This document shows positions 2,911-39,250 of a DNA stretch of 64,000 nucleotides, one piece after another. The stretch lies in sequence record LR597663, one strand, 5' to 3'. The DNA is from Escherichia phage VpaE1_ev78. Position 1 is the first letter of the stretch. Every line of letters starts with the position of its first letter. Under the pieces are notes generated by a model, which saw only the letters and a program-made list of their open reading frames with translations, did no database searches and was not told the origin of the DNA. A program made the position numbers and the translations under genes.

Positions 2911-2970
2911 AATCTTATTCATCTGAAGGTAAATCGGACAAAGAAGAGATTTGGTCTGGTCATTAAGAAT

Positions 2971-3047
2971 TGCGGGTATAGAGAAAGGGCGTCTCACATG
3001 TCTCATTAGCATGGTATCGGCAGGTTCGACTCCTGCACCCGCCTCCA
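2971..3047 (+). tRNA. tRNA with CAT anticodon (Met / initiator / Ile-lysidine type undetermined)
   Basis: T-arm GCAGG-TTCGACT-CCTGC, acceptor with 1:72 mismatch, anticodon stem built on palindromic CATG; position 37 appears to be T, which is atypical. Confidence 0.5.
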
Positions 3048-3052
3048 AATTT

Positions 3053-3077
3053 ACAGAAGACCGTTTACAGCAATATT
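3053..3077 (+). repeat. tRNA-spacer motif ACAGAAGACC-N5-CAGCAA, copy 2
   Basis: TTACAGAAGACCGTTTACAGCAA; GGTCTGG about 58 nt downstream. Confidence 0.6.
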
Positions 3078-3131
3078 TATTAAATTTTTAGCGGAAAAAA
3101 TTGAAAGATACGGTCTGGTAACACTAAACAT

Positions 3132-3208
3132 GGTTAGGAAGCACATAAGGTATGTGCGGTCGCCTGTTAAGCGAATGGCACAGGGTTCGAATCCCTGACT
3201 AACCGCCA
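3132..3208 (+). tRNA. tRNA-Asn (anticodon GTT)
   Basis: Acceptor GGTTAGG/ACTAACC, anticodon loop CTGTTAA, T-arm CAGGG-TTCGAAT-CCCTG, CCA encoded. Confidence 0.7.
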
Positions 3209-3217
3209 AATTTAAAT

Positions 3218-3305
3218 GTGTCGTTATCCCGTAGATGGTAGCGGTGGGGACTGTAAATCCCTTGTCATTGAGACTCGGTAGGTTCGACTCCTACACGGCA
3301 CACCA
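3218..3305 (+). tRNA. tRNA-Tyr (anticodon GTA), long variable arm
   Basis: 88 nt; acceptor GTGTCGT/ACGGCAC, anticodon arm GGGGA-CTGTAAA-TCCCT, T-loop TTCGACT. Confidence 0.7.
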
Positions 3306-3310
3306 ATAAA

Positions 3311-3388
3311 GGTTATGTAGTTTAATTTGGTTAAAATACTCCCCTGTCACGGGAGATGATGAGGGTTCAAATCCCTTCGTAACCGCCA
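3311..3388 (+). tRNA. tRNA-Asp (anticodon GTC)
   Basis: Acceptor GGTTATG/CGTAACC, anticodon arm CTCCC-CTGTCAC-GGGAG, T-loop TTCAAAT. Confidence 0.7.
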
Positions 3389-3448
3389 ATTTTGAGAGGG
3401 CTATTTAGCCCCTCCCTTAAAGAGTTCTTACGAGTATTCTTTAAAGGA

Positions 3449-3472
3449 GCAGAAGACCAAATACAGCAAGTT
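3449..3472 (+). repeat. tRNA-spacer motif, copy 3 (GCAGAAGACCAAATACAGCAA)
   Basis: Same motif family; GGTCTGG about 67 nt downstream. Confidence 0.55.
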
Positions 3473-3534
3473 ATTTAAAATTTCAAGCCAATTTAATTTT
3501 GAAAAATTTAAAACTTGGTCTGGCTCAACAAATT

Positions 3535-3560
3535 TACAGAAGACCGTTTACAGCAAAACT
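3535..3560 (+). repeat. tRNA-spacer motif, copy 4 (TTACAGAAGACCGTTTACAGCAA)
   Basis: Identical core to copy 2. Confidence 0.6.
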
Positions 3561-3591
3561 TAACAATCTATTTCTCCGGTAAAGAAAAGGC

Positions 3592-3626
3592 GAAGGTTCG
3601 ATTCCTTCACTCGGCAGATGTCGAGT
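3592..3626 (+). ncRNA. tRNA-like minihelix: canonical T-arm (GAAGG-TTCGATT-CCTTC) directly followed by a 7-bp acceptor-like hairpin (ACTCGGC-AGAT-GTCGAGT); no D or anticodon arm found
   Basis: T-loop consensus present but no complementary 5-prime acceptor strand within 120 nt upstream; complementary strand lies immediately downstream. Confidence 0.4.
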
Positions 3627-3668
3627 TGGTGTAATGGTAGTACTTAAGATGATAAACAACGGTCTGGT

Positions 3669-3688
3669 AATTATCTTTGTAGATAAGT
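3669..3688 (+). repeat. hairpin element TTATCT-TTGT-AGATAA preceded by GGTCTGG
   Basis: Second copy with inverted loop (TTATCT-ACAA-AGATAA) at about 3795-3810; the two flank roughly 105 nt. Confidence 0.55.
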
Positions 3689-3792
3689 TATTAAGCTTAC
3701 CTGTGAGTATGCGACCACAAAGGGTGAAAGGGTAAATTCTAGATTTAAACCCAAAAAGGCACATCGCTACAGACCTTAAGCAAGTCTGGGTA

Positions 3793-3812
3793 GCTTATCT
3801 ACAAAGATAATT
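3793..3812 (+). repeat. hairpin element TTATCT-ACAA-AGATAA, second copy, preceded by GTCTGGG
   Basis: Reverse complement of the copy at 3669-3688. Confidence 0.55.
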
Positions 3813-3816
3813 TAAT

Positions 3817-3892
3817 GGAAGTGTAGCAGAATGGTGATGCGGCAGACTTTTAATCTGACAGGCGATGGGTTCGAATCCCTCCACTTCTACCA
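3817..3892 (+). tRNA. tRNA-Lys (anticodon TTT)
   Basis: Acceptor GGAAGTG/CACTTCT, anticodon loop CTTTTAA, T-loop TTCGAAT; two outer T-stem mismatches. Confidence 0.6.
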
Positions 3893-3896
3893 ATAT

Positions 3897-3973
3897 GGTT
3901 CAGTCGCAGATAAGGTAATGCAAGGGTCTCATAAGCCCTATGAATGTGGGTTCGATTCCCATCTGAACCTCCA
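3897..3973 (+). tRNA. tRNA-Met (anticodon CAT)
   Basis: Acceptor GGTTCAG/CTGAACC, anticodon arm AGGGT-CTCATAA-GCCCT, T-loop TTCGATT, CCA encoded. Confidence 0.65.
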
Positions 3974-3974
3974 A

Positions 3975-4050
3975 GCTGGTATAGTTAAGAAGGTTATAAC
4001 ACTCCCCTGATAAGGGAACATCGGTGGTTCGATTCCACCTACCAGTACCA
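3975..4050 (+). tRNA. tRNA-Ile (anticodon GAT)
   Basis: Acceptor GCTGGTA/TACCAGT, anticodon loop CTGATAA, T-arm GGTGG-TTCGATT-CCACC. Confidence 0.65.
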
Positions 4051-4065
4051 ATTTCAATAAAGTTG

Positions 4066-4094
4066 TTGACATTGAGATGTGACTACTTTATAGT
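4066..4094 (+). promoter_or_regulatory. sigma70-like promoter (TTGACA, 17 nt, TATAGT)
   Basis: Near-consensus hexamers with 17-nt spacer inside the tRNA array. Confidence 0.6.
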
Positions 4095-4298
4095 AACCTT
4101 AGTTTTCGTTGCGTAGCGTCTATTTTGCAAATTTAAAATAAATGCAAACGACAATGTTTTTCTGGCAGTAGCTTGATAGGCTAAACACCAGTGAGGTCTT
4201 CCAATCCCTCATCAAAGAATTTGGCGTACTCGCCCACGGTATGATTAATAAGGTGGGCATCTTTAAGGGCTTTCTAAGAGAGTCTTTAAAGATAATTA

Positions 4299-4380
4299 CG
4301 GGGCGTATCTCAGCGGTCTTCTAAACCGCCGTTAACCGAGTAAGTGGAGTATGCGGGTTCGAGTCCTGCCGCCTCGACCA
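4299..4380 (+). tRNA. atypical tRNA-like gene (82 nt): acceptor and T-arm canonical, anticodon-like hairpin with loop CTTCTAA (TCT, Arg-like), no recognisable D-arm, 23-nt extra region
   Basis: Acceptor CGGGGCG/CGCCTCG, T-arm GCGGG-TTCGAGT-CCTGC, CCA encoded; the only strong internal hairpin is GCGGT-CTTCTAA-ACCGC right after positions 8-9. Confidence 0.45.
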
Positions 4381-4394
4381 ATTTTGGAGAAATC

Positions 4395-4742
4395 ATGAAA
4401 ACTTGTATTAGGTGCAAACTTAGCAAGGATGAAAATGATTTCTACATGAAAGATGGTAGGAGAACTCATTCATACTGTAAAAAGTGTGTTAATGAGCAAA
4501 CCATAGAAAGACAAAGAGCACTTAAACTCTCAGCTATTGAGTACAAAGGTGGGGTTTGTCACGATTGTGGTAAAAAGTATCATCCAGCAGTGTATGACTT
4601 CCATCATTTGAATCCTTCAGAGAAAGATTTTAACATTGGTCATAGGAAAAGCCTTAAGTTCTCTCAAGAACTAAAAGATGAACTTGACAAATGTGTTTTG
4701 CTATGTTCAAATTGCCATAGGGTAAGACATGCAAAGTATTAG
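4395..4742 (+). CDS. HNH homing endonuclease
   Basis: Motif DFHHLNPSEKDF...CVLLCSNCHRVRH; ORF-track start lies inside the upstream tRNA, so trimmed to ATG at 4395 (RBS GGAGA). Confidence 0.8.
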   Translation: MKTCIRCKLSKDENDFYMKDGRRTHSYCKKCVNEQTIERQRALKLSAIEYKGGVCHDCGKKYHPAVYDFHHLNPSEKDFNIGHRKSLKFSQELKDELDKCVLLCSNCHRVRHAKY

Positions 4743-4885
4743 TTAGCAGATTACTTAGACGACCTAAGCGGGTCTTCCTGTAGGGAGGTGGTCTGTATCT
4801 CATGTTTTCCAGAACATGTAAATAATCTGAGAAGAAGCTTGACAGTGTTGAGATAACAGGGTAAGCTTCGAATTATAGTTTTAAT

Positions 4886-4956
4886 AGGGGTGAGCTATGG
4901 CAGCAATAGAGTCTCCAAAATTCTTGATTAGAGTTCGAATCTCTACACCCCTGCCA
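4886..4956 (+). tRNA. tRNA-Trp (anticodon CCA), short with reduced D-arm
   Basis: Acceptor AGGGGTG/CACCCCT, anticodon arm AGAGT-CTCCAAA-ATTCT, T-arm TAGAG-TTCGAAT-CTCTA; about 71 nt. Confidence 0.55.
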
Positions 4957-4970
4957 GAACAGGTGCTTGT

Positions 4971-5375
4971 ATGAAACTTTGTAGAAAATGTTCTCAAGAA
5001 AAGCCTTTAAGCTGCTTTCATAAAAGAGGTAATGGCTATCAGTCTGCTTGCAAAGATTGTAAAGCTAAGTACTCAGCAAAGAGATACAAAGAAGACCCTA
5101 CTTATAAAGCAAAAAGAAAAGTTAGGGCAAAATATGACAAAAAGAGGAACAGAGAGTTCCTTAGTAGATATAAAAAGTTTTGCAAATGCAGAATATGTGG
5201 CGAATCTGAGCCAGTAGCTTTGGATTTTCATCACTTAGACCCTAAAGAGAAAGATTTTGCTCCAAGCAATCTTAAAACTTACTCTAGGGGCACTATTAAG
5301 CGTGAAGTCCGTAAGTGTGTTGTGCTTTGTTCAAACTGTCATAGGAAAGTTCATGAAGGACTGTTAAGTATTTAA
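4971..5375 (+). CDS. HNH homing endonuclease (paralogue of 4395..4742)
   Basis: Motif DFHHLDPKEKDF...CVVLCSNCHRKVH; RBS AGGTG. Confidence 0.8.
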   Translation: MKLCRKCSQEKPLSCFHKRGNGYQSACKDCKAKYSAKRYKEDPTYKAKRKVRAKYDKKRNREFLSRYKKFCKCRICGESEPVALDFHHLDPKEKDFAPSNLKTYSRGTIKREVRKCVVLCSNCHRKVHEGLLSI

Positions 5376-5388
5376 CAGTCTTATTAGG

Positions 5389-5476
5389 GGTAGGTAGCGG
5401 CTAATGGTAGCCAAACTGTCTTGAAAACAGTTGCCACTGTAGAGATACGGTGAGGGTTCGACTCCTTTACTTACCG
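5389..5476 (+). tRNA. tRNA-Ser (anticodon TGA), long variable arm
   Basis: Acceptor GGTAGGT/ACTTACC, anticodon arm ACTGT-CTTGAAA-ACAGT, T-loop TTCGACT; CCA not encoded. Confidence 0.65.
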
Positions 5477-5633
5477 CCTAATAAGATTTAAAGCCAAGCT
5501 TCATTCGGATGTTGCTTTGGTATCCCGCGTGTATTGTTGTACACACTGATAAAGCACCTAGTAGGTGTCACGGAGAAGAGATAATATCAAGCTCTCCAAA
5601 GGTTCTAGTCACCGGATTAAACAAGACTATGCA

Positions 5634-5654
5634 AAGACCTTTTTAGGTCTTTTT
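5634..5654 (+). terminator. possible intrinsic terminator or processing hairpin (AAGACC-TTTTTA-GGTCTT plus TTTT)
   Basis: Short hairpin followed by T-run inside the tRNA array. Confidence 0.3.
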
Positions 5655-5733
5655 AGAGGGCTTCTAAGGTTATTACAGCTTGTTGTGGAACCTTGTTGCT
5701 TAGGTTCTTAGAAGTTCTCTAAAAAGATTTAAT

Positions 5734-5811
5734 GGGAGATTGACGGTAATTGGTAAACCTATCTCGCTTAGAACGAGATGTTTGAGGGTTCGAATCCCTT
5801 GTCTCCTACCA
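5734..5811 (+). tRNA. tRNA with TAG anticodon (nominally Leu) but type-I short variable arm
   Basis: Acceptor GGGAGAT/GTCTCCT, anticodon arm TCTCG-CTTAGAA-CGAGA, T-arm GAGGG-TTCGAAT-CCCTT; variable region about 5 nt. Confidence 0.55.
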
Positions 5812-5818
5812 AATTAAT

Positions 5819-5894
5819 GCAGGTGTAGCAAAATGGTTATGCGGCTGACTCTTAATCAGTAAGACGATGGGTTCAATTCCCTCCACCTGTACCA
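5819..5894 (+). tRNA. tRNA-Lys (anticodon CTT)
   Basis: Acceptor GCAGGTG/CACCTGT, anticodon loop CTCTTAA, T-loop TTCAATT; similar to the 3817 tRNA. Confidence 0.6.
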
Positions 5895-5899
5895 AAAAT

Positions 5900-5975
5900 G
5901 GGGTCATAGTTTATATGGTTAAAATTCGAGTTTTGCAAACTTGGGAACTGAGTTCAATTCTCAGTGACTCCACCA
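5900..5975 (+). tRNA. tRNA-Ala (anticodon TGC)
   Basis: Acceptor GGGGTCA/TGACTCC, anticodon arm CGAGT-TTTGCAA-ACTTG, T-arm CTGAG-TTCAATT-CTCAG. Confidence 0.65.
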
Positions 5976-5981
5976 ATTAGT

Positions 5982-6056
5982 GCATCCATAGTTTAAACGG
6001 GAAAATTACAGTCTTCCAAACTGAGGTTGAGGGTTCGATTCCCTCTGGATGCTCCA
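5982..6056 (+). tRNA. tRNA-Gly (anticodon TCC)
   Basis: Acceptor GCATCCA/TGGATGC, anticodon loop CTTCCAA, T-arm GAGGG-TTCGATT-CCCTC. Confidence 0.65.
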
Positions 6057-6063
6057 AATTAAT

Positions 6064-6139
6064 GCTCCTATCGTATAATTGGCTATTACGGTTGCCTTGT
6101 AAGTAACTTATCAGGGTTCGAATCCTTGTGGGAGCACCA
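6064..6139 (+). tRNA. tRNA-Thr (anticodon TGT)
   Basis: Acceptor GCTCCTA/TGGGAGC, anticodon arm GTTGC-CTTGTAA-GTAAC, T-loop TTCGAAT. Confidence 0.65.
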
Positions 6140-6236
6140 ATTTAGAGGTCAAGTGAAAGACCGCTTTGAGTCAACTGAAGACCGTAACAAATTCCACGGA
6201 GTTGAGTTAGCGGCACAACTCCAGACCTCTTCTCAC

Positions 6237-6311
6237 ACTCGCTTAGTTTATATGGTAAAACACCACCCTTACAAGATGAAGAAAAAGGTTCAAGTCCTTT
6301 AGTGAGTACCA
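6237..6311 (+). tRNA. tRNA, probably Val (anticodon TAC); weak anticodon stem
   Basis: Acceptor ACTCGCT/AGTGAGT, T-arm AAAGG-TTCAAGT-CCTTT, anticodon loop CTTACAA with two stem mismatches. Confidence 0.45.
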
Positions 6312-6312
6312 T

Positions 6313-6390
6313 GTTCCAGTATCCCAATTGGCAGAGGATGCAAGCTCAAACCTTGTACTAGTGATGGTTCGAATCCATCTTGGAACACCA
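6313..6390 (+). tRNA. tRNA with CAA anticodon (nominally Leu) but type-I short variable arm
   Basis: Acceptor GTTCCAG/TTGGAAC, anticodon arm GCAAG-CTCAAAC-CTTGT, T-arm GATGG-TTCGAAT-CCATC. Confidence 0.5.
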
Positions 6391-6395
6391 ATTTT

Positions 6396-6471
6396 GCAGG
6401 ATTAGTTCAAATGGATAGAGCAACAGTCTACGAAGCTGTTAATAGGGGTTCAAATCCCTTATCCTGCGCCA
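6396..6471 (+). tRNA. tRNA-Arg (anticodon ACG)
   Basis: Acceptor GCAGGAT/ATCCTGC, anticodon arm ACAGT-CTACGAA-GCTGT, T-loop TTCAAAT. Confidence 0.65.
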
Positions 6472-6490
6472 ATTTAAAGAGGCTATTTAG

Positions 6491-7048
6491 ATGAGATATT
6501 TGAAGTATGCTTCATGGATTTTCTTAGCTTTGTTAGAACCATTTGCAGCAATCTTAGCAGTTATCTTAGCACCTTTTGTAGTTCCATTCTACAGTGAGAA
6601 GAAAGGACACTTACCTTTCGGGTTCAGATGGATGGAGACATATGACAACCCAATTGATGGTGATGAAGGTCACGTTAAAAGATGGGCTAATATTAGATGG
6701 ATTGGTAAACTAGGTGTCTACATGCAAAGAGTCGGATGGCTCTGGAGAAACAAAGCTTATAACTTCTCTTACCATGTGTTAGGAAGAGATGTAAAAGATG
6801 TTACTAAGTGGAAAGGTAATATCAACGTAAGTTCTAACCCTGAAGATAATCAGACAGGTTATCTCCTAATGTGGAACAGTAATGCTTGGGGATTATTCGC
6901 TTTTACCCCATCAATTAAAATCTTTGGTAAACAGTTTTACTGGAGAATTTATATTGGGTGGAAGCTAAAAAGTGTTGTCCCAGAAGAAAGAGCATTCTCA
7001 AGGGAAAGAGTTATGTTGGCATTCTTTATTCATCCACTAAGAAAGTAA
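6491..7048 (+). CDS. Trp-rich membrane protein of unknown function (185 aa) inside the tRNA array
   Basis: RBS AAAGAGG; hydrophobic N-terminal segment WIFLALLEPFAAILAVILAPFVVPF; many Trp residues. Confidence 0.65.
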   Translation: MRYLKYASWIFLALLEPFAAILAVILAPFVVPFYSEKKGHLPFGFRWMETYDNPIDGDEGHVKRWANIRWIGKLGVYMQRVGWLWRNKAYNFSYHVLGRDVKDVTKWKGNINVSSNPEDNQTGYLLMWNSNAWGLFAFTPSIKIFGKQFYWRIYIGWKLKSVVPEERAFSRERVMLAFFIHPLRK

Positions 7049-7056
7049 AGATTTAA

Positions 7057-7132
7057 AGGGGATTAGTTTACAAGGTTAAAACCTCGGTCTTTGAAATCGA
7101 AGAAGTTGGTTCAATTCCAACATCCCCCGCCA
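7057..7132 (+). tRNA. tRNA-Gln (anticodon TTG)
   Basis: Acceptor AGGGGAT/ATCCCCC with 1:72 mismatch, anticodon loop CTTTGAA, T-arm GTTGG-TTCAATT-CCAAC. Confidence 0.6.
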
Positions 7133-7134
7133 AT

Positions 7135-7213
7135 GCTCCATTACTCCAATTGGCAGAGAGGCCAGACTTAAAATCTGTGTTATGTATCGGTTCGAATCCG
7201 ATATGGAGTACCA
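7135..7213 (+). tRNA. tRNA with TAA anticodon (nominally Leu) but type-I variable arm (about 7 nt)
   Basis: Acceptor GCTCCAT/ATGGAGT, anticodon loop CTTAAAA, T-arm ATCGG-TTCGAAT-CCGAT. Confidence 0.5.
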
Positions 7214-7218
7214 AATTT

Positions 7219-7294
7219 AGCGGTATAGCATAACTGGCAATGCAGCAGCCTCTGAAGCTGTCCTATTAAGGTTCAAATCCTTATGCCGCTGCCA
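7219..7294 (+). tRNA. tRNA-Gln (anticodon CTG)
   Basis: Acceptor AGCGGTA/TGCCGCT, anticodon arm GCAGC-CTCTGAA-GCTGT, T-arm TAAGG-TTCAAAT-CCTTA. Confidence 0.6.
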
Positions 7295-7325
7295 CTTCTA
7301 AGGATTCTTACGAGAGTCCTTAAAT

Positions 7326-7401
7326 GTGGCCTTATCATAAATGGTAATGACCCATGCTGTGAACATGGTCTATACGGGTTCAAATCCCGTAGGTCACCCC
7401 A
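7326..7401 (+). tRNA. tRNA-His (anticodon GTG)
   Basis: Acceptor GTGGCCT/AGGTCAC, perfect anticodon arm CCATG-CTGTGAA-CATGG, T-arm ACGGG-TTCAAAT-CCCGT. Confidence 0.7.
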
Positions 7402-7406
7402 ATTTA

Positions 7407-7481
7407 TAGTCCAAGTAGCTTATATGGTTAAAGCGCGTGTCTGAAAAACATGAGAAGAGGGTTCAAATCCCACTGGACTAC
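7407..7481 (+). tRNA. tRNA-Phe (anticodon GAA)
   Basis: Acceptor TAGTCCA/TGGACTA, anticodon arm CGTGT-CTGAAAA-ACATG, T-loop TTCAAAT; CCA not fully encoded. Confidence 0.6.
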
Positions 7482-7499
7482 CAATTTCAAAGGTGCTTA

Positions 7500-8234
7500 A
7501 TGAAAGAGATGACAGAACAAGGTAAGGAGATTTTTAATCTCTTAAAAACCGGTAAAGGGTTCTCTAACCCACTTATTACTGGTGCAGCAGTTCTCGGTGG
7601 AACCGTAGCTGCTTCTACATCACTTGTAAGCTCTATTAGTTCTGTAACAGACCCTACAATGAAGGAGAAACTTGTTGCTGCTGGACTTACAACAGTCCTT
7701 CTAAACAGCTTTACAACAAGCCTTACAAGCACTACAGCAACTACTAAAACTCTGACAGACTACGGTCAAAAGTCTATTGATGAGTTTTCATCACGTATGC
7801 AGGTAGCAAAGGGGTATTCCAATGTTATGGGTGCAGCAGGAGAACAAGTTGGTTGTACACCATTCAGTGGTATCATGGGTGTTGCTACAGAGTATGGTCA
7901 AAAAGCTATTGACATGATGAACAGTACACTAGATAGTGTTAATGGTGTGTTAAGTGACTTGCAAGATGCTATTGATAAGGGTCTTGATACTGTTTCTGAT
8001 TTAGCTAATCAGGCTGTTAGTAAGATTAATGAAGGTATTTCAAAGATTACAGCTTATGCAGATGAAGTTGTGCAGATGATTGAAGAAGAAGCTGCCCTTA
8101 TTGCAGAGTACCTTAAAACGAATATCAATGGGTTCTTAGCAGGTATCTTACCAGACTGGTTTGATGATGCCTGTAAAACTGGTGTGATTGACACTATTGC
8201 AACACCAGAAATGAAGAGCGCATTACAGAAATAA
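7500..8234 (+). CDS. hypothetical Ser/Thr/Ala-rich protein (244 aa) inside the tRNA array
   Basis: ORF-track start overlaps tRNA-Phe; trimmed to in-frame ATG at 7500; low-complexity T/S/A/G-rich middle. Confidence 0.5.
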   Translation: MKEMTEQGKEIFNLLKTGKGFSNPLITGAAVLGGTVAASTSLVSSISSVTDPTMKEKLVAAGLTTVLLNSFTTSLTSTTATTKTLTDYGQKSIDEFSSRMQVAKGYSNVMGAAGEQVGCTPFSGIMGVATEYGQKAIDMMNSTLDSVNGVLSDLQDAIDKGLDTVSDLANQAVSKINEGISKITAYADEVVQMIEEEAALIAEYLKTNINGFLAGILPDWFDDACKTGVIDTIATPEMKSALQK

Positions 8235-8236
8235 AT

Positions 8237-8329
8237 GGAAGATTAACCCTAAAAGGTAAGGGAGCAGTTTGCTAAACTGCCAGTAGCTGAGAAATCGGTG
8301 TACCAGTTCAAGTCTGGTATCTTCCTCCA
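8237..8329 (+). tRNA. tRNA-Ser (anticodon GCT), long variable arm
   Basis: 93 nt; acceptor GGAAGAT/ATCTTCC, anticodon arm GCAGT-TTGCTAA-ACTGC, T-arm ACCAG-TTCAAGT-CTGGT; starts 3 nt after upstream stop. Confidence 0.7.
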
Positions 8330-8333
8330 ATTT

Positions 8334-8409
8334 GAATCCGTGACAGAAATGGCTATGTGCCTGTCTGCAAAACAGGTTTATAAGGGTTCGAGTCCCTTCG
8401 GATTCTCCA
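8334..8409 (+). tRNA. tRNA-Cys (anticodon GCA)
   Basis: Acceptor GAATCCG/CGGATTC, anticodon arm CCTGT-CTGCAAA-ACAGG, T-arm AAGGG-TTCGAGT-CCCTT. Confidence 0.7.
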
Positions 8410-31968: not shown

Positions 31969-32340
31969 ATGAAGTGGCTAGAGGAAGCTTTTAAAAATAA
32001 TATTGGTGCAATTGTAGTTGGTATTTTTAGTGTTATTGGGATGTATACCACTATGCAAGTTTCAAGTGGTAAGCAAGAAGTGTCTGTCACAACAAAGTTA
32101 CAGCAGCTAGATAATTATTCCAAAAGTAACTATTCAGCTATTCGTGATTTACAGTCTGACATGAGACTGATTCAGCTAGGGATGGAGAACCAGAAAGTTC
32201 AGTTAGAGAATGTTAAGGGTGAAAACGCAAAACTTACCAAAACTCTTGATAAATTCTCTGACAGTGTGAACAATCTGGCTCAATCAGTATCAGCCCTCCA
32301 AGCTATTACTGAAAAGAACACAAAGAATACTGAAAAATAA
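31969..32340 (+). CDS. membrane-anchored coiled-coil protein (123 aa)
   Basis: N-terminal TM IGAIVVGIFSVIGMY followed by coiled coil; last gene before convergent terminator. Confidence 0.45.
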   Translation: MKWLEEAFKNNIGAIVVGIFSVIGMYTTMQVSSGKQEVSVTTKLQQLDNYSKSNYSAIRDLQSDMRLIQLGMENQKVQLENVKGENAKLTKTLDKFSDSVNNLAQSVSALQAITEKNTKNTEK

Positions 32341-32347
32341 AGTTTAA

Positions 32348-32374
32348 GGCTCCTTTTTACGGGAGCCTTTTTTG
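32348..32374. terminator. intrinsic terminator at convergence point (GGCTCC-TTTTTA-CGGGAGCC plus TTTTTT)
   Basis: GC hairpin and T-run between plus structural operon and minus-strand thyA. Confidence 0.7.
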
Positions 32375-33277: not shown

Positions 33278-33823
33278 TCAAAAGTGTCCTTTTACTTGTG
33301 GAACATAAATTTCAAAGGTTGCTTTACCATCCTCTGATGGTTTTGACTGTACCTTTGTAAATACACGGTTATCATACAGCTTCTCAAAGAAGTTTTCAAA
33401 AGGTAAATACACAGTGGCCTCTTCAGTAACTTTATGGAAAACTGTATGGAAAACTACACCAGCATACGGCAAAGCATTGACAAGAACACCTGCACCACCA
33501 ATTACAAAGACATCTTCATCAATAGAGCTATCAAGATACTTCAAAAATGCTCCAAAGGATTCTTTACTGGCCTTAGCATACATTACATCATCTTTGTCAA
33601 AGTCTATACCCAAATATGGAACAGAGTTCGTTAAGACGAGGTTTGTACGTTCTGGTAATGGTTTGCTACCCAGAGTCTTAAAAGTCTCATTACCCATTAC
33701 TACTAAGTTATCTTTAGTGAGTCTCTTAAACTCTTGCATATCCTGTTTATGTCGAGGCCACGGCATACCAGTTGGAGTACCAAACTCCCCATTTTCACCA
33801 CTTGCAAAGATTAATTTAATCAT
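33278..33823 (-). CDS. folA: dihydrofolate reductase
   Basis: N-terminal MIKLIFASGENGEFG...GMPWP and LVVMGNETF resemble DHFR; adjacent to thyA. Confidence 0.75.
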   Translation of the reverse strand: MIKLIFASGENGEFGTPTGMPWPRHKQDMQEFKRLTKDNLVVMGNETFKTLGSKPLPERTNLVLTNSVPYLGIDFDKDDVMYAKASKESFGAFLKYLDSSIDEDVFVIGGAGVLVNALPYAGVVFHTVFHKVTEEATVYLPFENFFEKLYDNRVFTKVQSKPSEDGKATFEIYVPQVKGHF

Positions 33824-34080
33824 TTTGTAAATCCTTTCTTAATGAACCAGTTGATAACACTCTTCACAGCTTTACTACGATGGTAGATAAAATGTGGAGA
33901 GGGTTGGTATGAACCATAAGCCCAGAAAGCGATAATTTCATTACACCCTGTGCATCGGGTACTTTCTTCAGCAATATGACCGTTGACTATTTCACTTACC
34001 TCACCTTGTAAGTCTGTACACCCGCAATGTGGACAACGGATAGGTGTTCCATCAGACTCATAGCAGTGTTCAATTTTCAT
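33820..34080 (-). CDS. small zinc-ribbon protein (CPHCGC...CTGCN)
   Basis: Two CxxC pairs; 86 aa. Confidence 0.5.
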   Translation of the reverse strand: MKIEHCYESDGTPIRCPHCGCTDLQGEVSEIVNGHIAEESTRCTGCNEIIAFWAYGSYQPSPHFIYHRSKAVKSVINWFIKKGFTK

Positions 34081-34596
34081 CTATTTAACCTCAAAAACTG
34101 GTTCAAGAACCAATATAAAGTCTACACAGTCATCTTCTTCATCCAGAATACCATCAAAGTTCTTAGGTACAAAGTCGAAGAGGCTCATAGAATATCGGTC
34201 AGAAGTAACCCTGATAGTGTTCCCTATATTCTCTACAGTTAATATTGTACGGCTTTCTGTTACCTCACTTAGAAGATTACTCACAAAGTCATCTAAGAAG
34301 TGTTTCATCAGTGACTTGAAGCCTTTAGGGTAATCTGTACCAGAGTATGTTTCAATCTGAGGAACAAGCTTAACATTTATACTAGTCTTTGTTAAGAACG
34401 TTTTAGAGAACATGCTATCAGGTAGCTTACAAACAGTCTTTCCAGTACCTTCATGTTCAATCTCAACAAAACCAGCTTCGTCGCCACATGTAACTATTTT
34501 AAAAGATGCTTCATTCTCATACTGTGAAGCCATAAACTTTTTAAGCATCTCTTTAAGGAAATCTGCATGAGCATCTTGTAAGTAGATATCAATCAT
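34081..34596 (-). CDS. hypothetical protein (171 aa)
   Basis: Coupled ORF in minus-strand cluster; no recognisable motif. Confidence 0.5.
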   Translation of the reverse strand: MIDIYLQDAHADFLKEMLKKFMASQYENEASFKIVTCGDEAGFVEIEHEGTGKTVCKLPDSMFSKTFLTKTSINVKLVPQIETYSGTDYPKGFKSLMKHFLDDFVSNLLSEVTESRTILTVENIGNTIRVTSDRYSMSLFDFVPKNFDGILDEEDDCVDFILVLEPVFEVK

Positions 34597-34609
34597 AGTT
34601 AATCACCTA

Positions 34610-34969
34610 TTATGGGAACAAACATTTAATGTCATCGTTTTTGAAAACGAAGCTTGTGTAGTTGTGACCGTCAACATCCAGCCAAACAGCTTGAACATCT
34701 ACACCATCAAGATTGTGGTAAAGCTCTTTGATGAAGTGGTCTTTCACAATCTGGCTGCTAGTTGTCTCCAGCTTAATGTTTGAGATTGCTGAACCTACAG
34801 CCATATAACCCATGACACGTTTCTTCTCAGTGTGCTTAATCTTACCATCTTTGTAAGCCATAATGAGATTGGAAAGAATCTTCACACCATAATACTTTTC
34901 AAGGTGAGTAGGTGCACCATAAAAGCCTAATGCAAAGTTTTCAGAGTGGATAATGTTTTCACGTTTCAT
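34610..34969 (-). CDS. hypothetical protein (119 aa)
   Basis: ORF in minus-strand cluster. Confidence 0.5.
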   Translation of the reverse strand: MKRENIIHSENFALGFYGAPTHLEKYYGVKILSNLIMAYKDGKIKHTEKKRVMGYMAVGSAISNIKLETTSSQIVKDHFIKELYHNLDGVDVQAVWLDVDGHNYTSFVFKNDDIKCLFP

Positions 34970-34970
34970 A

Positions 34971-35300
34971 TTAATCTGCCAGCCTTAAATTAAAATTAAC
35001 ACCAAATTTTTCGCATACTTCCAACATATACTCAAGGGAGACATTACCAGTGAGGTGGATTATGTTGGATACGCGAGCCTGAGAGATACCACAAATTTTA
35101 GCAACTTGCTCTTGAGAAAGACCTCTGGATTTAATCTCTCTCTTAAAACGATGTGCAACGAAATCTCTCATTTCGTCTACATCCATTGGACAAATATAAC
35201 TCTCCATTTCAGCCTCTCTGTCAGCCTCCCAATCATCTTGTGGAGCATAAGGGTCAAAAACCTCATTCATCTTTCTTCTTCCGTTTTCGTGAAGTGTCAA
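34971..35300 (-). CDS. helix-turn-helix DNA-binding protein (XRE/Cro-like)
   Basis: C-terminal HTH-like segment LSQEQVAKICGISQARVSNIIH. Confidence 0.55.
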   Translation of the reverse strand: MTLHENGRRKMNEVFDPYAPQDDWEADREAEMESYICPMDVDEMRDFVAHRFKREIKSRGLSQEQVAKICGISQARVSNIIHLTGNVSLEYMLEVCEKFGVNFNLRLAD

Positions 35301-35475
35301 TCAATGAATCTATGTTTGTAGCCCTAACCTTTTCACGTTCATCGTTAAGATAATCATCAAGAGCCTTTTCAATCTGTGAATCATCTTGACAGATAACTGT
35401 AAAGACTGTAAAGCCGTCTGTATCATCAATTATCTTACCATAACCGCTTCTGGGATGTAACTTTTTAAGAGCCAT
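35263..35475 (-). CDS. hypothetical small protein (70 aa)
   Basis: ORF overlapping neighbour; Lys-rich C-terminus. Confidence 0.3.
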   Translation of the reverse strand: MALKKLHPRSGYGKIIDDTDGFTVFTVICQDDSQIEKALDDYLNDEREKVRATNIDSLIDTSRKRKKKDE

Positions 35476-35476
35476 A

Positions 35477-35860
35477 TCAAATACCTGTGCAGCTTCTGTT
35501 TTCTAAGAAATACTCAACACCATACATAGCTTTTTGCATCAAATCTTCTTTAAACTGGATACGATGATTGAGCATAGCCTGTACATCAATATCATCAGGG
35601 TGCTTCTCTTTAATATTTGCAGATTGCAGGAAATACTCTGCAAGAACACGATACTGATAGTCAGTTACCTTATCAGTCATCTCTGTTAAAGACTCTTCAG
35701 AGATTGGTTTAAGTAGCTCACCATTAGCCAGAGCAACACCTTTAACAATCTGGCAAGTGTCTTCTGGAACTCCTGATAAATCCACATTTGGAAGTTCTGT
35801 TGCATTGACTGGTAAATTCATTGACATAACCATTGCAGCAGCTAATAAAATCTTTTTCAT
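35477..35860 (-). CDS. secreted protein with signal peptide (127 aa)
   Basis: N-terminal MKKILLAAAMVMSMNLPVNA signal-peptide-like sequence. Confidence 0.55.
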   Translation of the reverse strand: MKKILLAAAMVMSMNLPVNATELPNVDLSGVPEDTCQIVKGVALANGELLKPISEESLTEMTDKVTDYQYRVLAEYFLQSANIKEKHPDDIDVQAMLNHRIQFKEDLMQKAMYGVEYFLENRSCTGI

Positions 35861-36132
35861 AATGACCTCAAAGTTATATTAAATTTTGTATTACATTGAG
35901 TATAAAAATAAGCTATAACACCTGACTTGTCAACAGATTTTATAGCTTATTTGGCAGATTTTTTATAAGGCTACTGCCATCCTTCCATACCAGACCACAC
36001 CATGCCAAACCAGACTTCACATCACCTTACCGTGCAATACATTACTTAAAAACCCTCTTAAAAGACTCTTAAGTTATGCTGGTGAGTACCTGTTGGTTTA
36101 TGCTGCTCAGTATACTCACCAAATTTTCTATG

Positions 36133-36321
36133 TCAACAGCTTTCTAATAAAGTTTTATGAAGATTTTGCTTAACAACCCGCCTCACATGCCTGTGCTCTT
36201 TCTTAATAAAGAGTGACCTCTTCTTGACAGAGCGCCTATTCTTGTAGGTATCACTAGGATACTTATCATGAACCGGACAACAGCTACCCGGATTTGTAAA
36301 CTTGATAATCTCTCTTTTCAC
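36133..36321 (-). CDS. hypothetical small basic protein (62 aa)
   Basis: ORF coupled to ligase gene. Confidence 0.35.
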   Translation of the reverse strand: MKREIIKFTNPGSCCPVHDKYPSDTYKNRRSVKKRSLFIKKEHRHVRRVVKQNLHKTLLESC

Positions 36322-37424
36322 TATTCATAATCCCTAATAACTAGCCCAACAGGGAACTGTAAAGAACCCTTACGAGTCATCTTCTGGAACTGAACCGTTA
36401 AAGGCTTCCCGATAAACTCTTCAGGATGTTCAGCAAGATACTGTTTCTTCTCATGAGTAGTCTTCCATGAGACATCTACAAAGACGTTAGGAAGAGTCTC
36501 TACAACGAACTTGCCATGACCGCGTTTATCGGTCTTTACACCAGTCACTTTAAACTCTTCAGTGTGCATCTTCTTGTGTTTAATCAAGAAGTAAGAACGG
36601 TGACAACACTCATAGAAGGAGTCTTCAGAGATTGAACGGTACATTGCACCTTCAAACTTAGCTTCAACCCACTTATCATGAGCTTCATCAAACTCTTCCC
36701 AAGAATTTACACGACGAGATTTGACAGGAACAACTTTACAGCCATCTCTGAAGTCATTCAATGGTGAAGTCTCAATAATATCTCTACGCTCAGGCCACGT
36801 CTTAGTGCTGTCACAAATATCATACCAGTAAAACTTGAGTAGGCGACGGTCAGGATTGTCTTCATTTTTAATCATAGAGACAATATCTTCTAAATCCCAC
36901 CCATGAGCATAAATCTCACCATCAAACTCATCAACATCTTTGTGGAGCCTTAACATTGCCATAATGTCAGGTATTAGCTCAGTAGGGATTTTATAAACAG
37001 TATTCTCACGAGAGTATGCTGTAAATACACTACCAATGCTTAAGTGTCTTGAAATTCTACAACGGACACCATCAAGTTTTGGTTGAGCATCAGCAGGAAA
37101 TATCAAATACTTTGCATGACTAACCTTTGCAGCATCATGAGCAAGCTGTACACCTACCTTCTCAGTATTCTGTGCAGACTCTTTTGTGTAAGCATAACCT
37201 TTGCGGTCAACTTGCTTTTTATACTTAGCAGCAACTTCAAAGAGGGCTTGCTGTTCAGCGTTACGCTCATTCTTTTTACCGATGTTTTTAGGTTCTGCTG
37301 TATACTCTTCAAACATCATCTTGCCATTTTCTTTACCGTAGGTTGTAATAACTTTGTCACCTACAGCAACGCATGACCAGACGTTGAAGGAACCATCTTT
37401 ATTTTGTTTGTACAGAATTGTCAT
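36321..37424 (-). CDS. ATP-dependent DNA ligase (nucleotidyltransferase motif I KxDGxR)
   Basis: Motif PKLDGVRC; start trimmed to ATG preceded by AGAGG RBS (MTILYKQ...). Confidence 0.7.
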   Translation of the reverse strand: MTILYKQNKDGSFNVWSCVAVGDKVITTYGKENGKMMFEEYTAEPKNIGKKNERNAEQQALFEVAAKYKKQVDRKGYAYTKESAQNTEKVGVQLAHDAAKVSHAKYLIFPADAQPKLDGVRCRISRHLSIGSVFTAYSRENTVYKIPTELIPDIMAMLRLHKDVDEFDGEIYAHGWDLEDIVSMIKNEDNPDRRLLKFYWYDICDSTKTWPERRDIIETSPLNDFRDGCKVVPVKSRRVNSWEEFDEAHDKWVEAKFEGAMYRSISEDSFYECCHRSYFLIKHKKMHTEEFKVTGVKTDKRGHGKFVVETLPNVFVDVSWKTTHEKKQYLAEHPEEFIGKPLTVQFQKMTRKGSLQFPVGLVIRDYE

Positions 37425-37617
37425 TTTTAACCTCTGAGTGATACCAAGTCTTGCAAGCATTACATGCGTAAAGCTCTAAGTCATTTTTATCTGGTTTATG
37501 GAAACAGTTTGACCCACAACGACACCGGAATAGTTTACCATCAACACGAAGAATGAATGTTTCAAGCTCACCATCTTCTGTAAGAACTGCGTTCTTAAAT
37601 TTATCTTCTACAGTCAT
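37399..37617 (-). CDS. small zinc-finger protein (72 aa)
   Basis: CRCGSNC...CNAC cysteine pairs. Confidence 0.45.
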   Translation of the reverse strand: MTVEDKFKNAVLTEDGELETFILRVDGKLFRCRCGSNCFHKPDKNDLELYACNACKTWYHSEVKNDNSVQTK

Positions 37618-37919
37618 TTTCTCTTACCGCCAATCTCTACGTCAATAACTTGAACATCACCAGCAACATCAAACTTATGAATGATGCTTTCCACAGTGTA
37701 AGTCCAACCATCAATGCGAACCAGCTCACCTTCTCGTGGAACTATTGGATTACGTTGAGCTACGGTTGTAGTGGAGTGAACAACATCATAACAGTAGATA
37801 TAGTTTACTAGGACTTCCATCGTGAAAACCTCACTCAATAACCGTAGTATGTGATTGCCCATTTTTGCCATAGCTATAAGATGTTGTTGTTTGAGAGTTT
37901 GGGCATCTGACAACAACAA
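37614..37919 (-). CDS. hypothetical protein (101 aa)
   Basis: Coupled ORF. Confidence 0.4.
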   Translation of the reverse strand: MLLSDAQTLKQQHLIAMAKMGNHILRLLSEVFTMEVLVNYIYCYDVVHSTTTVAQRNPIVPREGELVRIDGWTYTVESIIHKFDVAGDVQVIDVEIGGKRK

Positions 37920-38067
37920 TATCTCTACTTATAGCATCACCATGTAACTTGTATACTCTGCAATCTTGCATCTCTGGTGGGAGGCTGTAAGAAGCATTTT
38001 TATCTTCATAAGAAGGGTTGCAGCCAGATAGAAAAATAACACCAAGCGCAATTACTGCTTTCCACAT
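37831..38067 (-). CDS. putative lipoprotein (lipobox LSGC)
   Basis: Signal peptide MWKAVIALGVIFLSGC after trimming to internal ATG. Confidence 0.45.
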   Translation of the reverse strand: MWKAVIALGVIFLSGCNPSYEDKNASYSLPPEMQDCRVYKLHGDAISRDIVVVRCPNSQTTTSYSYGKNGQSHTTVIE

Positions 38068-38080
38068 AACACTTCTCCTA

Positions 38081-38323
38081 TTACTGTTCACGATGTTCTA
38101 CTTCTCTGTATGTACGTCGGTAGTTTATGATAAGAGGTGCTAATTCATTGCTTTTAACATTTGAACGTAACAGTTGCCAATCAAAACCTTTACCGACTCT
38201 TCCATACAAACTAAATAATTTTACTTTGCGTTTCATTTTGGTATACCAATACTCAGAGGTCAATATTAATACGTTCGCCCTTAAGGACTCCTGTACGGTC
38301 TCTTGCAATCTTGCCGTCAACAA
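38081..38323 (-). CDS. hypothetical protein (80 aa)
   Basis: ORF in minus-strand cluster. Confidence 0.35.
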   Translation of the reverse strand: MLTARLQETVQESLRANVLILTSEYWYTKMKRKVKLFSLYGRVGKGFDWQLLRSNVKSNELAPLIINYRRTYREVEHREQ

Positions 38324-38480
38324 TAAGGATATGTGCAGCCCTTAAAGAGTCACCATTAAAAGCTTTTACGAACTTACTAGGCATCACTACAATGGACATC
38401 TCCTGAATCAACTCTGGAGTATAGCAATTGTCGTGAAGTTGCTGAATAACGTCTGCAAGTGTCATTTTTGATGTCTCCAA
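38253..38480 (-). CDS. hypothetical protein (75 aa)
   Basis: ORF in minus-strand cluster; overlaps neighbour. Confidence 0.35.
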   Translation of the reverse strand: METSKMTLADVIQQLHDNCYTPELIQEMSIVVMPSKFVKAFNGDSLRAAHILIVDGKIARDRTGVLKGERINIDL

Positions 38481-38671
38481 TACTCAATGTCAATAAGTTC
38501 TTGTGCAATGCTTTTCAGATTACCTTTCAAGAAAACCTTCTCAGAACCTGAAATAGATGAATTGTCAATTAACCTGTTCATCCTCTCAAACAACTTCTGC
38601 TTACGATTCTTGATAGTCTCCTTTGAAGCACCTTTCATCATTGCTGCATGGGTTCTTCCACGATGGCTCAT
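38462..38671 (-). CDS. hypothetical basic protein (69 aa)
   Basis: ORF in minus-strand cluster. Confidence 0.35.
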   Translation of the reverse strand: MSHRGRTHAAMMKGASKETIKNRKQKLFERMNRLIDNSSISGSEKVFLKGNLKSIAQELIDIEYWRHQK

Positions 38672-38722: not shown

Positions 38723-39250
38723 TCAACTTAGTTTTGCAAACTCTCCGTGGAGTTTAGTAGCAGCTTCACAGTAAGCTTTATGGGCTTCTTCAGGTGTGTC
38801 ATAGTATCCTAATGACATCTTTTTACCTTTATAGCTTATTTGCGCAACCCACCTACCAGACTTCTTCTTCAGGCTTACACCCTTATAGCCTGATTTATTG
38901 GTGGATAGTTTGCTTTTATTCCAAGCACTTTGGTAGTCATCTGCTTCTCTTAAGTTTGCAATCCTGTTATCAAGGGAGTCCCCGTTAATATGGTCAATAA
39001 CACCTTTCGGTAACCTGCCATACACGTACAGCCATGCGAGTCTGTGCGCTTTATGTGCTTTCTTGTCAAAATAGATAGTAATCTGCTTATGACCAGTTGA
39101 GTCAATCTGAATGCTCCCCGCTACCTGTCCTGCGTGCTGACTATTAAAAACTTTAACAGCCTTTGAGTCACCCTCTCTACGAAGCCAAGTAAAGACCCCT
39201 GTTTCGGGGTCATAGTGTAGTAGTTCCTTTAAACGTTCTTGTGTAATCAT
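38723..39250 (-). CDS. HNH homing endonuclease with AP2 DNA-binding domain
   Basis: HNH-like GVIDHINGDSLDNRIANL followed by AP2-like GYKGVS...GRWVAQISYKGKKMSLGYYDTPEEAHKAY. Confidence 0.75.
   Translation of the reverse strand: MITQERLKELLHYDPETGVFTWLRREGDSKAVKVFNSQHAGQVAGSIQIDSTGHKQITIYFDKKAHKAHRLAWLYVYGRLPKGVIDHINGDSLDNRIANLREADDYQSAWNKSKLSTNKSGYKGVSLKKKSGRWVAQISYKGKKMSLGYYDTPEEAHKAYCEAATKLHGEFAKLS

Follow-up and report, generated by a model that had tools for sequence, protein, structure and literature searches.

Felix O1-type phages are widely used in Salmonella and E. coli typing, in biocontrol and in therapy, and about one tenth of their genes lie in blocks of small open reading frames (ORFs) without assigned function. 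One such block was analysed here in Escherichia phage VpaE1_ev78 (sequence record LR597663); the stretch of 64,000 nucleotides (nt) that was examined is called the window throughout. The block occupies positions 33820-38671 of the minus strand and consists of 13 small ORFs of 51-171 amino acids (aa), designated g1 to g7 and g9 to g14, together with a DNA ligase gene. The closest described systems are Felix O1 ORF82-94 (NC_005282) and bas63_0032-0045 of Escherichia phage JohannRWettstein (Bas63; MZ501086), whose genes correspond to those of the block, in identical order and orientation, and are likewise flanked by frd (DHFR) and the HNH/polymerase genes. Most ORFs of the window are 84-100% identical in aa to their counterparts in these two phages, divergent alleles are about 70% identical (Felix O1 g12), and an intergenic gap with two promoters, P1 and P2, is common to all. 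The window has g7 where Felix O1 has none and Bas63 has a 48-aa hydrophobic ORF, and it carries another g1 allele than Bas63 (85%). Such a block is ordinary for a large lytic phage, and this one is already known: hundreds of genome records carry annotations of its ORFs, and knockouts of them have been made in a close relative.

Expression and knockout data are available for the two relatives. In Felix O1, genes 96-80 were defined as one transcription region, and the hairpin after thyA is listed as t79/t80 (Whichard et al., PMC3185647). In reverse transcription PCR (RT-PCR), the transcripts of ORFs 80, 83, 84, 87, 88, 89, 90, 93 and 96 reached their maximum at 25 min, that of ORF81 (DHFR) at 10 min and that of ORF95 (the HNH gene) at 5 min (PMC3185647). 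ORFs 83, 84, 87, 88, 89, 90 and 93 are equivalent to g2, g3, g6, the ligase gene, g9, g10 and g13, respectively. These results support transcription of the block, not an immediate-early label. The early expression assumed in a prior reading of the bare sequence (hereafter the original prediction) is not borne out by these data, in which the homologues measured peak at 25 min. The genes of Bas63 were knocked out genome-wide by PhageMaP; the gene numbers used in that study are GenBank locus tags (checked for 65, 79, 80, 84, 85, 123, 124 and 130), and the validated counter-defence genes are 77, 79, 80, 84, 85 and 130 (bioRxiv 10.1101/2024.10.10.617714).

The presence of a minus-strand block of small ORFs in the window was confirmed. 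We consider it probable, at about 0.6, that the region is the accessory part of a leftward transcription unit for replication and nucleotide metabolism in a Felix O1-like phage, with small proteins that act as binders and regulators.

Organization and coding capacity of the block

A 6-kb stretch around the block matches 259 phage records, of which 170 span the greater part of the stretch, with identities of 90-95% in nearly all cases. Almost all of these records are Felix O1-like myoviruses (Felixounavirus, Ounavirinae), and Bas63 is the closest (94.5% identity). The window also holds 24 tRNA genes, tail-fibre genes and a set of nucleotide-metabolism genes, as is typical of the Felix O1-like group, and is assigned to Felixounavirus on these sequence grounds. 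The GC skew is negative from about 32 to 42 kb, which fits a single leftward coding block.

Genes were called from the ORF list, by inspection of start codons and Shine-Dalgarno motifs, from the coverage of PHROG profiles and from the annotation of relatives. The block is colinear with Felix O1 ORF82-ORF94 and contains, in order of coordinates, g1-g6, a 272-nt non-coding gap (35861-36132), g7, the ligase gene and g9-g14. All of them lie on the minus strand; from one end of the block to the other, adjacent stops and starts overlap or are almost in contact, and Shine-Dalgarno motifs are present. Overlaps join the g1 stop to the DHFR start, the GTG of g7 to the ligase stop, g9 to the ligase start (26 nt) and g5 to the g4 start (8 nt). 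Beyond g14 lie the genes of an HNH-AP2 homing endonuclease and then of a family-A DNA polymerase. The count of about 14 small ORFs in the original prediction holds when the ligase is included. The non-coding gap had not been noted in it. Its size range of 60-170 aa has to be widened to 51-171 aa, and its placement of the block between DHFR and DNA polymerase is correct on the DHFR side, whereas the neighbour on the polymerase side is the endonuclease.

Compared with five Felixounavirus relatives, every small ORF gave a dN/dS of 0.009-0.185 (DHFR 0.11, ligase 0.08), and synonymous differences far outnumber non-synonymous ones in each. All 13 small proteins match PHROG families end to end, 12 of them under the label 'unknown function'. 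Homologues of most ORFs occur in Suspvirus and Mooglevirus at 32-79% aa identity, and those of g3 and g14 reach Kolesnikvirus. The start of g10 was fixed at 37820, as the phrog_4427 profile covers residues 1-68 of 68 and a GAGG ribosome-binding site lies upstream; for g12, the alignment to phrog_2381 begins at residue 10 of the longer form. The conservation and the coding signal on which the original prediction depended are both present.

Several of the ORFs are very short (51-70 aa), g7 has a GTG start, g12 has a weak ribosome-binding site and the annotated starts vary across GenBank records. Such features could be expected if many ORFs had arisen by chance in AT-rich phage DNA or were relics of genes in decay. 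This explanation is already contradicted and retains next to no probability: the excess of synonymous change is seen in every ORF, as in DHFR and ligase, the PHROG matches span the full length, homologues at 30-40% identity are found in other genera and families, and RT-PCR products were obtained in Felix O1. The 13 small ORFs are real protein-coding genes, packed with translational overlap and maintained by purifying selection. Their conserved core consists of g3, g4, g5, g10 and g14; g1, g2, g6, g7, g9, g11, g12 and g13 are fast-evolving or swappable members.

The g4 regulator and an invariant promoter element

The XRE-like helix-turn-helix (HTH) protein of the original prediction is borne out by g4 (34971-35270; 99 aa; phrog_1373 'transcriptional regulator'; dN/dS 0.009). 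Residues 43-93 score above the Pfam HTH_3 gathering threshold (39.7 bits vs 23; E 4.9e-10), and HTH_37 is reached as well (28.2 bits vs 27). The closest solved relatives of the HTH domain are PezA, HigA, HipB and the restriction-modification (R-M) controllers C.BclI and C.AhdI, and PADLOC reports Control_protein at 5e-5. A PDB hit to 8vd6 ('CAP REPEAT') was rejected, as it is a designed four-repeat protein with an inflated summed score. Within Felixounavirus, g4 is 98-100% identical at the protein level. The R-M controllers and XRE antitoxins (C.AhdI, C.BclI, HipB, HigA and PezA) are nearest to g4 in the HTH domain, and g4 is likewise encoded downstream of a promoter that overlaps a palindrome. 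It differs from them in a 40-residue acidic N-terminal extension, and no toxin or R-M partner adjoins it.

The gap between g6 and g7 carries two sigma70-like promoters on the minus strand. P1 (36109-36136; TTGACA-16-TATACT, 11/12) overlaps the g7 stop and is the strongest sigma70-like match in a 12-kb scan; P2 (35933-35905; TTGACA-17-TATTTT) was found in the promoter scan. Both are conserved in relatives. P1 is present in Felix O1, Bas63, ASO1A and LinBro, and its identity is 93-96% at the nt level, SUSP2 included. The context AAAGTTGTTGACA of P1 recurs elsewhere in the window, in sigma70-like promoters scattered through the array of 24 tRNA genes (2718-8406, plus strand).

The -35 box of P2 lies within a 19-bp hairpin, formed by the 19-nt inverted repeat I1 and followed by a U-run. 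The RNA hairpin has a predicted energy of -17.8 kcal/mol (z -3.8). Because P2 sits in a hairpin followed by a U-run, the element could end upstream transcription and also restart it. A second promoter with its -35 box inside a hairpin was seen at 2571-2610, with GGGTATTGACAATGTGTTTAATACCC followed by TTTAATAT; in Felix O1 this sequence is listed as terminators t42/t43 (PMC3185647). Fused terminator-promoter elements seem to be a recurring design in the Felix O1-like group.

P2, its hairpin and U-run, and a GGCAG-N16-CTGCC dyad are contained in a non-coding core of about 97 nt (35895-35990). Zero substitutions were found in this core among the aligned Felixounavirus, Suspvirus (SUSP2), Mooglevirus (Moogle) and SflM004 loci, while both flanks, formed by the GGT-rich repeats and by the g6 leader and coding sequence, diverge sharply. 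With a 129-nt query around the element, 238 places were found in 230 phage records, at a single place in nearly every record listed, and the identity was at least 99% in 172 of the 230. In contrast, about 20% of the synonymous sites in the neighbouring genes vary within the genus, and between genera the identity of g6 is only 32-41%. Both g4 and the element are absent from Kolesnikvirus. The element and g4 are, from sequence, a candidate operator-regulator pair; the candidate sites for g4 are the 19-nt inverted repeat around the P2 -35 box and the GGCAG-N16-CTGCC dyad. The element may alternatively be an origin, a small RNA terminator or a recombination linker.

The GGT-rich repeats of about 10 nt, located by repeat search between P1 and P2 (35978-36108, with direct repeat D1 at 35978-36040), vary in number among relatives, are strongly expanded in Bas63 and are annotated as repeat_region in phage bumzen. 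A transcript from P1 to the hairpin would be about 210 nt long, and folds with z -2.7. No Rfam match was obtained for the gap. The repeat region could be iteron-like or a small RNA. A 15-mer of the P2 hairpin arm, CAAATAAGCTATAAA (35938-35952), recurs exactly within the HNH coding sequence at 38829-38843, and a 13-mer of the arm has one further occurrence in the window, inside the HNH gene; this repeat could be due to chance or be a recombination scar. The motif TGGTGAGTA was considered as a regulon signal and rejected, as it is enriched window-wide, mostly in coding sequence, and shows no promoter pattern.

Hyperplastic regions and promoter-early stem-loop (PeSL) cassettes occur in T4-type phages. 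The block resembles them in its run of small unknown ORFs with variable content, and 35895-35990 resembles a PeSL cassette in the fusion of a sigma70-like promoter to a stem-loop, in a conservation beyond that of the flanking genes and in its sharp edges. Unlike PeSL cassettes, which have many dispersed copies per genome, 35895-35990 is nearly always single-copy and belongs to no dispersed repeat family. The block also lies inside a replication operon, and recombination is only conjectural here.

The Cys-rich proteins g1 and g9

Two Cys4 zinc-ribbon proteins had been predicted in the block. Conserved Cys pairs of this type are found in g1 and g9; g1 has the classical CxxC...CxxC arrangement, whereas the first knuckle of g9 is the atypical CxCx3C. 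In g1 (33820-34080; 86 aa; Felix O1 ORF82 and Bas63 gene 32; phrog_2993, E 3.6e-41; dN/dS 0.12), the pairs C16/C19 and C43/C46 are followed by a family-specific FWAYGSYxP motif. Residues C16, C19, C43, C46, Y55, G56 and P60 do not vary among 8 sequences with identities as low as 29%, the homologues coming from Krischvirus and from Proteus, Pseudomonas and Klebsiella phages.

The g1 homologue of Bas63, gene 32 (85% aa identity), was less essential in DH10B than in BW25113, MG1655 and S17-1; the authors credited it with '90% homology to Lar' and proposed that it acts against type IV restriction, the fitness pattern in their view not fitting type I systems (bioRxiv 10.1101/2024.10.10.617714). Membership of g1 in the Lar family was evaluated and rejected, as the scores of the window protein and of all homologues are below threshold. 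Against the TIGR03655 cut-off of 39.6 bits, g1 reached 18.6 bits and those homologues that match at all 14.5-19.7 bits; against the PF14354 cut-off of 28.6 bits, g1 gave no hit and the SUSP2 homologue 13.7 bits. Remote g1 homologues match TFIIB, LysW, Elf1 and other zinc ribbons equally weakly. Alignment of g1 to E. coli RalR by hhalign had a probability of 11.2% over 32 columns, with only the zinc knuckles aligned, and BLASTP against Lar/RalR gave 24% identity over 37 residues, the C-terminal parts not being alignable. With Lar/RalR (TIGR03655, PF14354; E. coli Rac prophage), g1 has the CPxCGC...CxGC zinc-ribbon spacing in common; it differs in its own FWAYGSYxP motif and a 30-residue C-terminal extension. 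By these comparisons g1 is not a demonstrable member of the Lar family, and it may act like an anti-restriction protein. In the T4-like Krischvirus ECD7, the g1 homologue gp187 (109 aa) is encoded near alt, in overlap with the stop of a DNA methyltransferase gene (L012:1797-2797), which makes a link between the g1 zinc-ribbon family and DNA modification possible.

In g9 (37399-37617; 72 aa, Cys/His-rich; Felix O1 ORF89 and Bas63 gene 40; phrog_5768), the residues C32-x-C34-x3-C38-x-H40 and C52-x2-C55 are conserved in 7 homologues. Gene 40 of Bas63 (97% aa identity) was needed less in the presence of several defence systems, and when expressed it was toxic to hhe-carrying cells only (bioRxiv 10.1101/2024.10.10.617714); it is therefore a trigger of the hhe defence, not a counter.

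The exported proteins g6 and g11

A signal-peptide protein and a lipoprotein had also been predicted, and both were recovered. In g6 (35477-35860; 127 aa; fast-evolving), a rule-based reading of the N-terminus gives an n-h-c signal peptide, MKK / ILLAAAMVMSM / NLPVNA|TE, with cleavage after VNA. All 22 homologues retain the signal peptide, although identity is 31-41%, and C36 and C124 do not vary among them. The AlphaFold2 model, built on the 22-homologue alignment, is a confident three-helix bundle (pLDDT 85.9) with residues 1-17 unstructured; structure searches with it returned generic bundles only. From its sequence, g6 is predicted to be a Sec-exported periplasmic protein.

g11 (37831-38067; 78 aa; phrog_902) has the lipobox L-S-G-C16 with Asn at +2; two more Cys and a motif, VVxCPN..TT.Y..GK, are likewise invariant. 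Remote homologues from Acinetobacter, Pectobacterium and Vibrio phages all keep G15 and C16, and g11 is predicted from these residues to be a lipoprotein precursor. By tblastn the family was found in 584 phage records, 295 of them Vibrio phages; the other carriers are Acinetobacter Obolenskvirus, Vequintavirinae, jumbo phages, and Pectobacterium and enterobacterial phages. In three unrelated phages (L016:2950-3192, L019:2501-2743 and L020:2471-2740) the homologue sits among small ORFs, and in two of these three it adjoins replication genes.

Two assignments were considered for g11 and rejected. An outer-membrane spanin (o-spanin) role was discarded on gene context: no inner-membrane spanin (i-spanin) gene adjoins or overlaps g11, and the neighbours g10 and g12 are without a transmembrane segment. 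The i- and o-spanin of Bas63 are annotated as genes 89 and 90, far from the block, the Moogle record labels the g11 homologue 'hypothetical protein', and the Moogle genome announcement describes spanins as scattered around the genome. A 30-aa TTG-initiated ORF with an LLGC lipobox (32018-32110, plus strand) was seen out of frame inside the ORF 31969-32340, which encodes 123 aa with a transmembrane segment and a coiled coil and is annotated as holin in relatives. The nested ORF resembles an embedded spanin pair; the annotated Bas63 spanins are elsewhere.

Phage T5 Llp and lambdoid Cor are small lipoproteins that block the receptor of their own phage. As a functional analogy, g11 is like them in being a lipoprotein of similar size with extra Cys, encoded by a lytic phage in a non-structural gene cluster. 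It differs from them in that its family spans phages of Vibrio, Acinetobacter, Pectobacterium and enterobacteria, for which a common receptor is unlikely. For Felix O1-type phages, use of lipopolysaccharide is reported (PMC8300805). An Llp-like assignment was not retained, as g11 has no sequence match to any PDB chain.

Variable slots and the remaining genes

Gene content varies at three places of the block: the g1-g3 interval, the gap downstream of the ligase gene, and the surroundings of g11-g12. The first holds g2 in the window and 2-3 other ORFs in Moogle and SUSP2. At the second, compared with the equivalent position in L001, L003 and L011, g7 is shared by the window, LinBro and SUSP2, whereas Bas63 and ASO1A have a hydrophobic, membrane-like ORF of 48 aa that is unrelated to it, and the slot is empty in Felix O1. 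A pair of ORFs of 146 and 195 aa, absent from the window, lies between g6 and the ligase gene in many relatives, downstream of g7 if this is present (L002:3971-5001, L004:4064-5094, L005:4368-5398 and L006:4558-5588). A Pfam search of the extra ORFs in the relatives' variable slots, this pair included, returned nothing. At the third place, g11 and g12 are both missing from SUSP2, and g12 from Moogle as well. Two alleles each of g1 and g9 (97% and 72% identical in g9) assort independently among relatives. As the three slots differ in content and the g1 and g9 alleles assort independently, the block is mosaic, as is usual for accessory regions of large lytic phages.

Domain searches with Pfam, NCBIfam, PADLOC and PHROGs gave curated domains only in the ligase, the HNH-AP2 endonuclease and the g4 HTH. 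No enzymatic domain was found by Pfam, NCBIfam or PADLOC in any of the 13 small ORFs, in agreement with the original prediction that the ligase alone carries enzymatic motifs. The ligase gene (36321-37424; 367 aa from a GAGG-preceded ATG; Felix O1 ORF88) passes the adenylation-domain cut-off (DNA_ligase_A_M, 28.3 bits vs 26.2) and falls slightly below that of DNA_ligase_OB_2 (24.3 bits vs 28). By these domains its product is an ATP-dependent DNA ligase.

Among the core genes, g3 (34610-34969; 119 aa; dN/dS 0.026) is conserved across Ounavirinae, with full-length homologues at 36% aa identity in Erwinia phage Prophecy and SeKF_13, and the gene of the Kolesnikvirus homologue abuts the ligase gene. 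Only 7 relatives of g3 were retrieved among 1.84 billion representative proteins, almost none outside the subfamily; two of the seven are repeat-protein artefacts that match the VWxDxDGxNYT motif, and were rejected. Neither Pfam nor the PDB gave a match to g3. g5 (35263-35475; 70 aa; phrog_4473; dN/dS 0.022) has a basic C-terminal tail, RKRKKKDE, and is 97-100% identical in aa within Felixounavirus and 53-63% in Moogle and SUSP2. The other two are g10 (37614-37820; 68 aa; dN/dS 0.053) and g14 (38462-38671; 69 aa, pI 10.3; phrog_5180; dN/dS 0.058), a basic protein encoded by the first gene of the small-ORF run and 53-57% identical in Kolesnikvirus.

Among the less constrained genes, g2 (34081-34596; 171 aa; phrog_4422) is a fast-evolving acidic protein (pI 4.6, net charge -13): its aa identity to the Suspvirus and Mooglevirus proteins falls to 36-41%, where the ligase has 87%. 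Its AlphaFold2 model was unusable (pLDDT 51, 5-sequence alignment). The products of g7 (36133-36321; 62 aa, pI 10.3; phrog_5428, E 1.2e-29) and g12 (38081-38236; 51 aa, pI 10.4; dN/dS 0.125) are basic. For g13 (38253-38465; 70 aa; phrog_4230; dN/dS 0.156), a weak NCBIfam hit (18-20 bits) to the N-acetylglucosamine transferase WaaK was obtained. Mimicry of this lipopolysaccharide (LPS) enzyme is a tempting idea because Felix O1-type phages are reported to use LPS (PMC8300805). The hit recurs only in 87-93%-identical homologues, is gone in the 36%-identical Moogle protein, and was treated as chance.

The flanks of the block were also inspected. The free-standing HNH-AP2 homing endonuclease gene (38723-39250, minus strand; Pfam HNH_3 1.1e-15, AP2 1.6e-13), which lies between g14 and the polymerase gene, is missing in Moogle and LinBro. 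At the other end, the terminator scan placed a bidirectional intrinsic terminator at 32346-32369, where it ends the minus-strand unit downstream of thyA. The LinBro annotation splits the DNA polymerase gene into two parts around an endonuclease VII-like ORF (L010:6416-7854), and several relatives list the ligase as two or three coding sequences. This suggests mobile-element insertions in replication genes of relatives that are intact in the window.

Discussion

If the block is the accessory part of a replication and nucleotide-metabolism unit, transcription would run from the polymerase gene through HNH, g14-g9, the ligase gene and g7, past P1 and P2, and on through g6-g1, DHFR and ThyA to the terminator. 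The small proteins would act as binders or regulators in early-to-middle infection and would not form one system. g4 may be an XRE-type repressor, most likely binding the invariant palindromic block around the P2 -35 box; at this promoter of its own sub-operon it would time or autoregulate the genes from g6 to thyA. g3 and g14 may be conserved partners of the replication machinery, and their conservation beside ligase and polymerase fits core replication roles better than arms-race factors. A few of the block genes probably deal with host defences or the cell envelope. Among these, g1 would be a zinc-ribbon fitness factor that neutralises a host-strain-specific barrier, and g9 a zinc-binding protein sensed by some defence systems such as hhe. 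g6, as a periplasmic helical bundle, and g11, as a lipoprotein sorted to the outer membrane, would act in the envelope, where they most plausibly protect the infected cell from superinfection or envelope-directed interference.

Several points weigh against this interpretation. The molecular targets of the block members remain putative; the generic fold of g6 gives no hint of its partner, the structure model of g2 failed, and the link of g1 to Lar fails the family thresholds. The link between g4 and its putative operator is drawn from position, symmetry and co-occurrence, the last being shared with g1, g2, g5 and g6. The RT-PCR timing is end-point and semi-quantitative. No gene of the block was validated as a counter-defence gene in the Bas63 screen, and all the genes that were validated lie outside the block.

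The original prediction was that of an early anti-defence island, in which most of the small proteins would inhibit immunity or host macromolecular synthesis and be expressed immediately after infection. Two members are indeed tied to host defences (Bas63 genes 32 and 40), and that part of the prediction stands; the early timing and the counter-defence role find little or no support. A dedicated island of this kind would account for small non-enzymatic ORFs, for the fast evolution of g1, g2, g6 and g9 and the variable slots, for sigma70-type promoters requiring no phage factor, for the host-conditional gene 32 that its authors termed Lar-like, and for the position of the Krischvirus ECD7 g1 homologue directly after a DNA methyltransferase gene. 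We nevertheless regard it as unlikely: the validated Bas63 counters all map elsewhere, g9 is a trigger and not a counter, the Felix O1 homologues peak at 25 and not at 5 min, PADLOC gave no match beyond the Control_protein hit of g4 and no ORF reaches the Lar threshold, and g3, g4, g5, g10 and g14 are very strongly constrained, not variable.

The T4 replication and deoxynucleoside triphosphate (dNTP)-synthetase complexes include small partners, and by comparison the small proteins here could mainly be accessory subunits or regulators of DHFR/ThyA, ligase and polymerase, with no role in host conflict. Translational coupling within the operon (g1/DHFR, g9/ligase start, g7/ligase stop) is in keeping with this, as are the abutment of g3 on the ligase gene and the retention of g14 in Kolesnikvirus, and the occurrence of the g11 family inside the replication modules of unrelated phages. 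g6 and g11 are exported, however, and therefore cannot partner cytoplasmic enzymes; there are relatives with these enzymes in which g1, g2, g7, g9, g11 or g12 is absent or has another gene in its place; and the phenotype of Bas63 gene 32 varies with the host strain. A purely enzyme-related role for the block thus appears quite improbable.

A joint reading of the element with g4, g1 and g11 is offered tentatively and is more doubtful than not. According to it, the element and g4 would be a cis-acting control point, and g1 and g11 would found new functional families. The element could then be an autoregulated middle-phase switch, a replication origin beside the GGT-rich repeats, or the terminator of the P1 RNA of about 210 nt. 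As a zinc-ribbon protein with no relation to Lar, g1 would overcome a barrier specific to the host strain, and g11 would be a small lipoprotein of hundreds of lytic phages of different hosts with a receptor-independent envelope target.

As the evidence stands, nothing in the block would surprise a phage genomicist, and the value of the analysis lies in triage. The best experimental targets are g1, g9, the exported pair g6 and g11, and g4 with the invariant promoter. Two items most merit follow-up: the invariant block of promoter and hairpin, taken together with g4, and the widespread lipoprotein family of g11. If the element is indeed a switch or an origin, it would aid the engineering of Felix O1-type phages, and if the g11 family does share an envelope target, its relevance would extend well beyond the genus.

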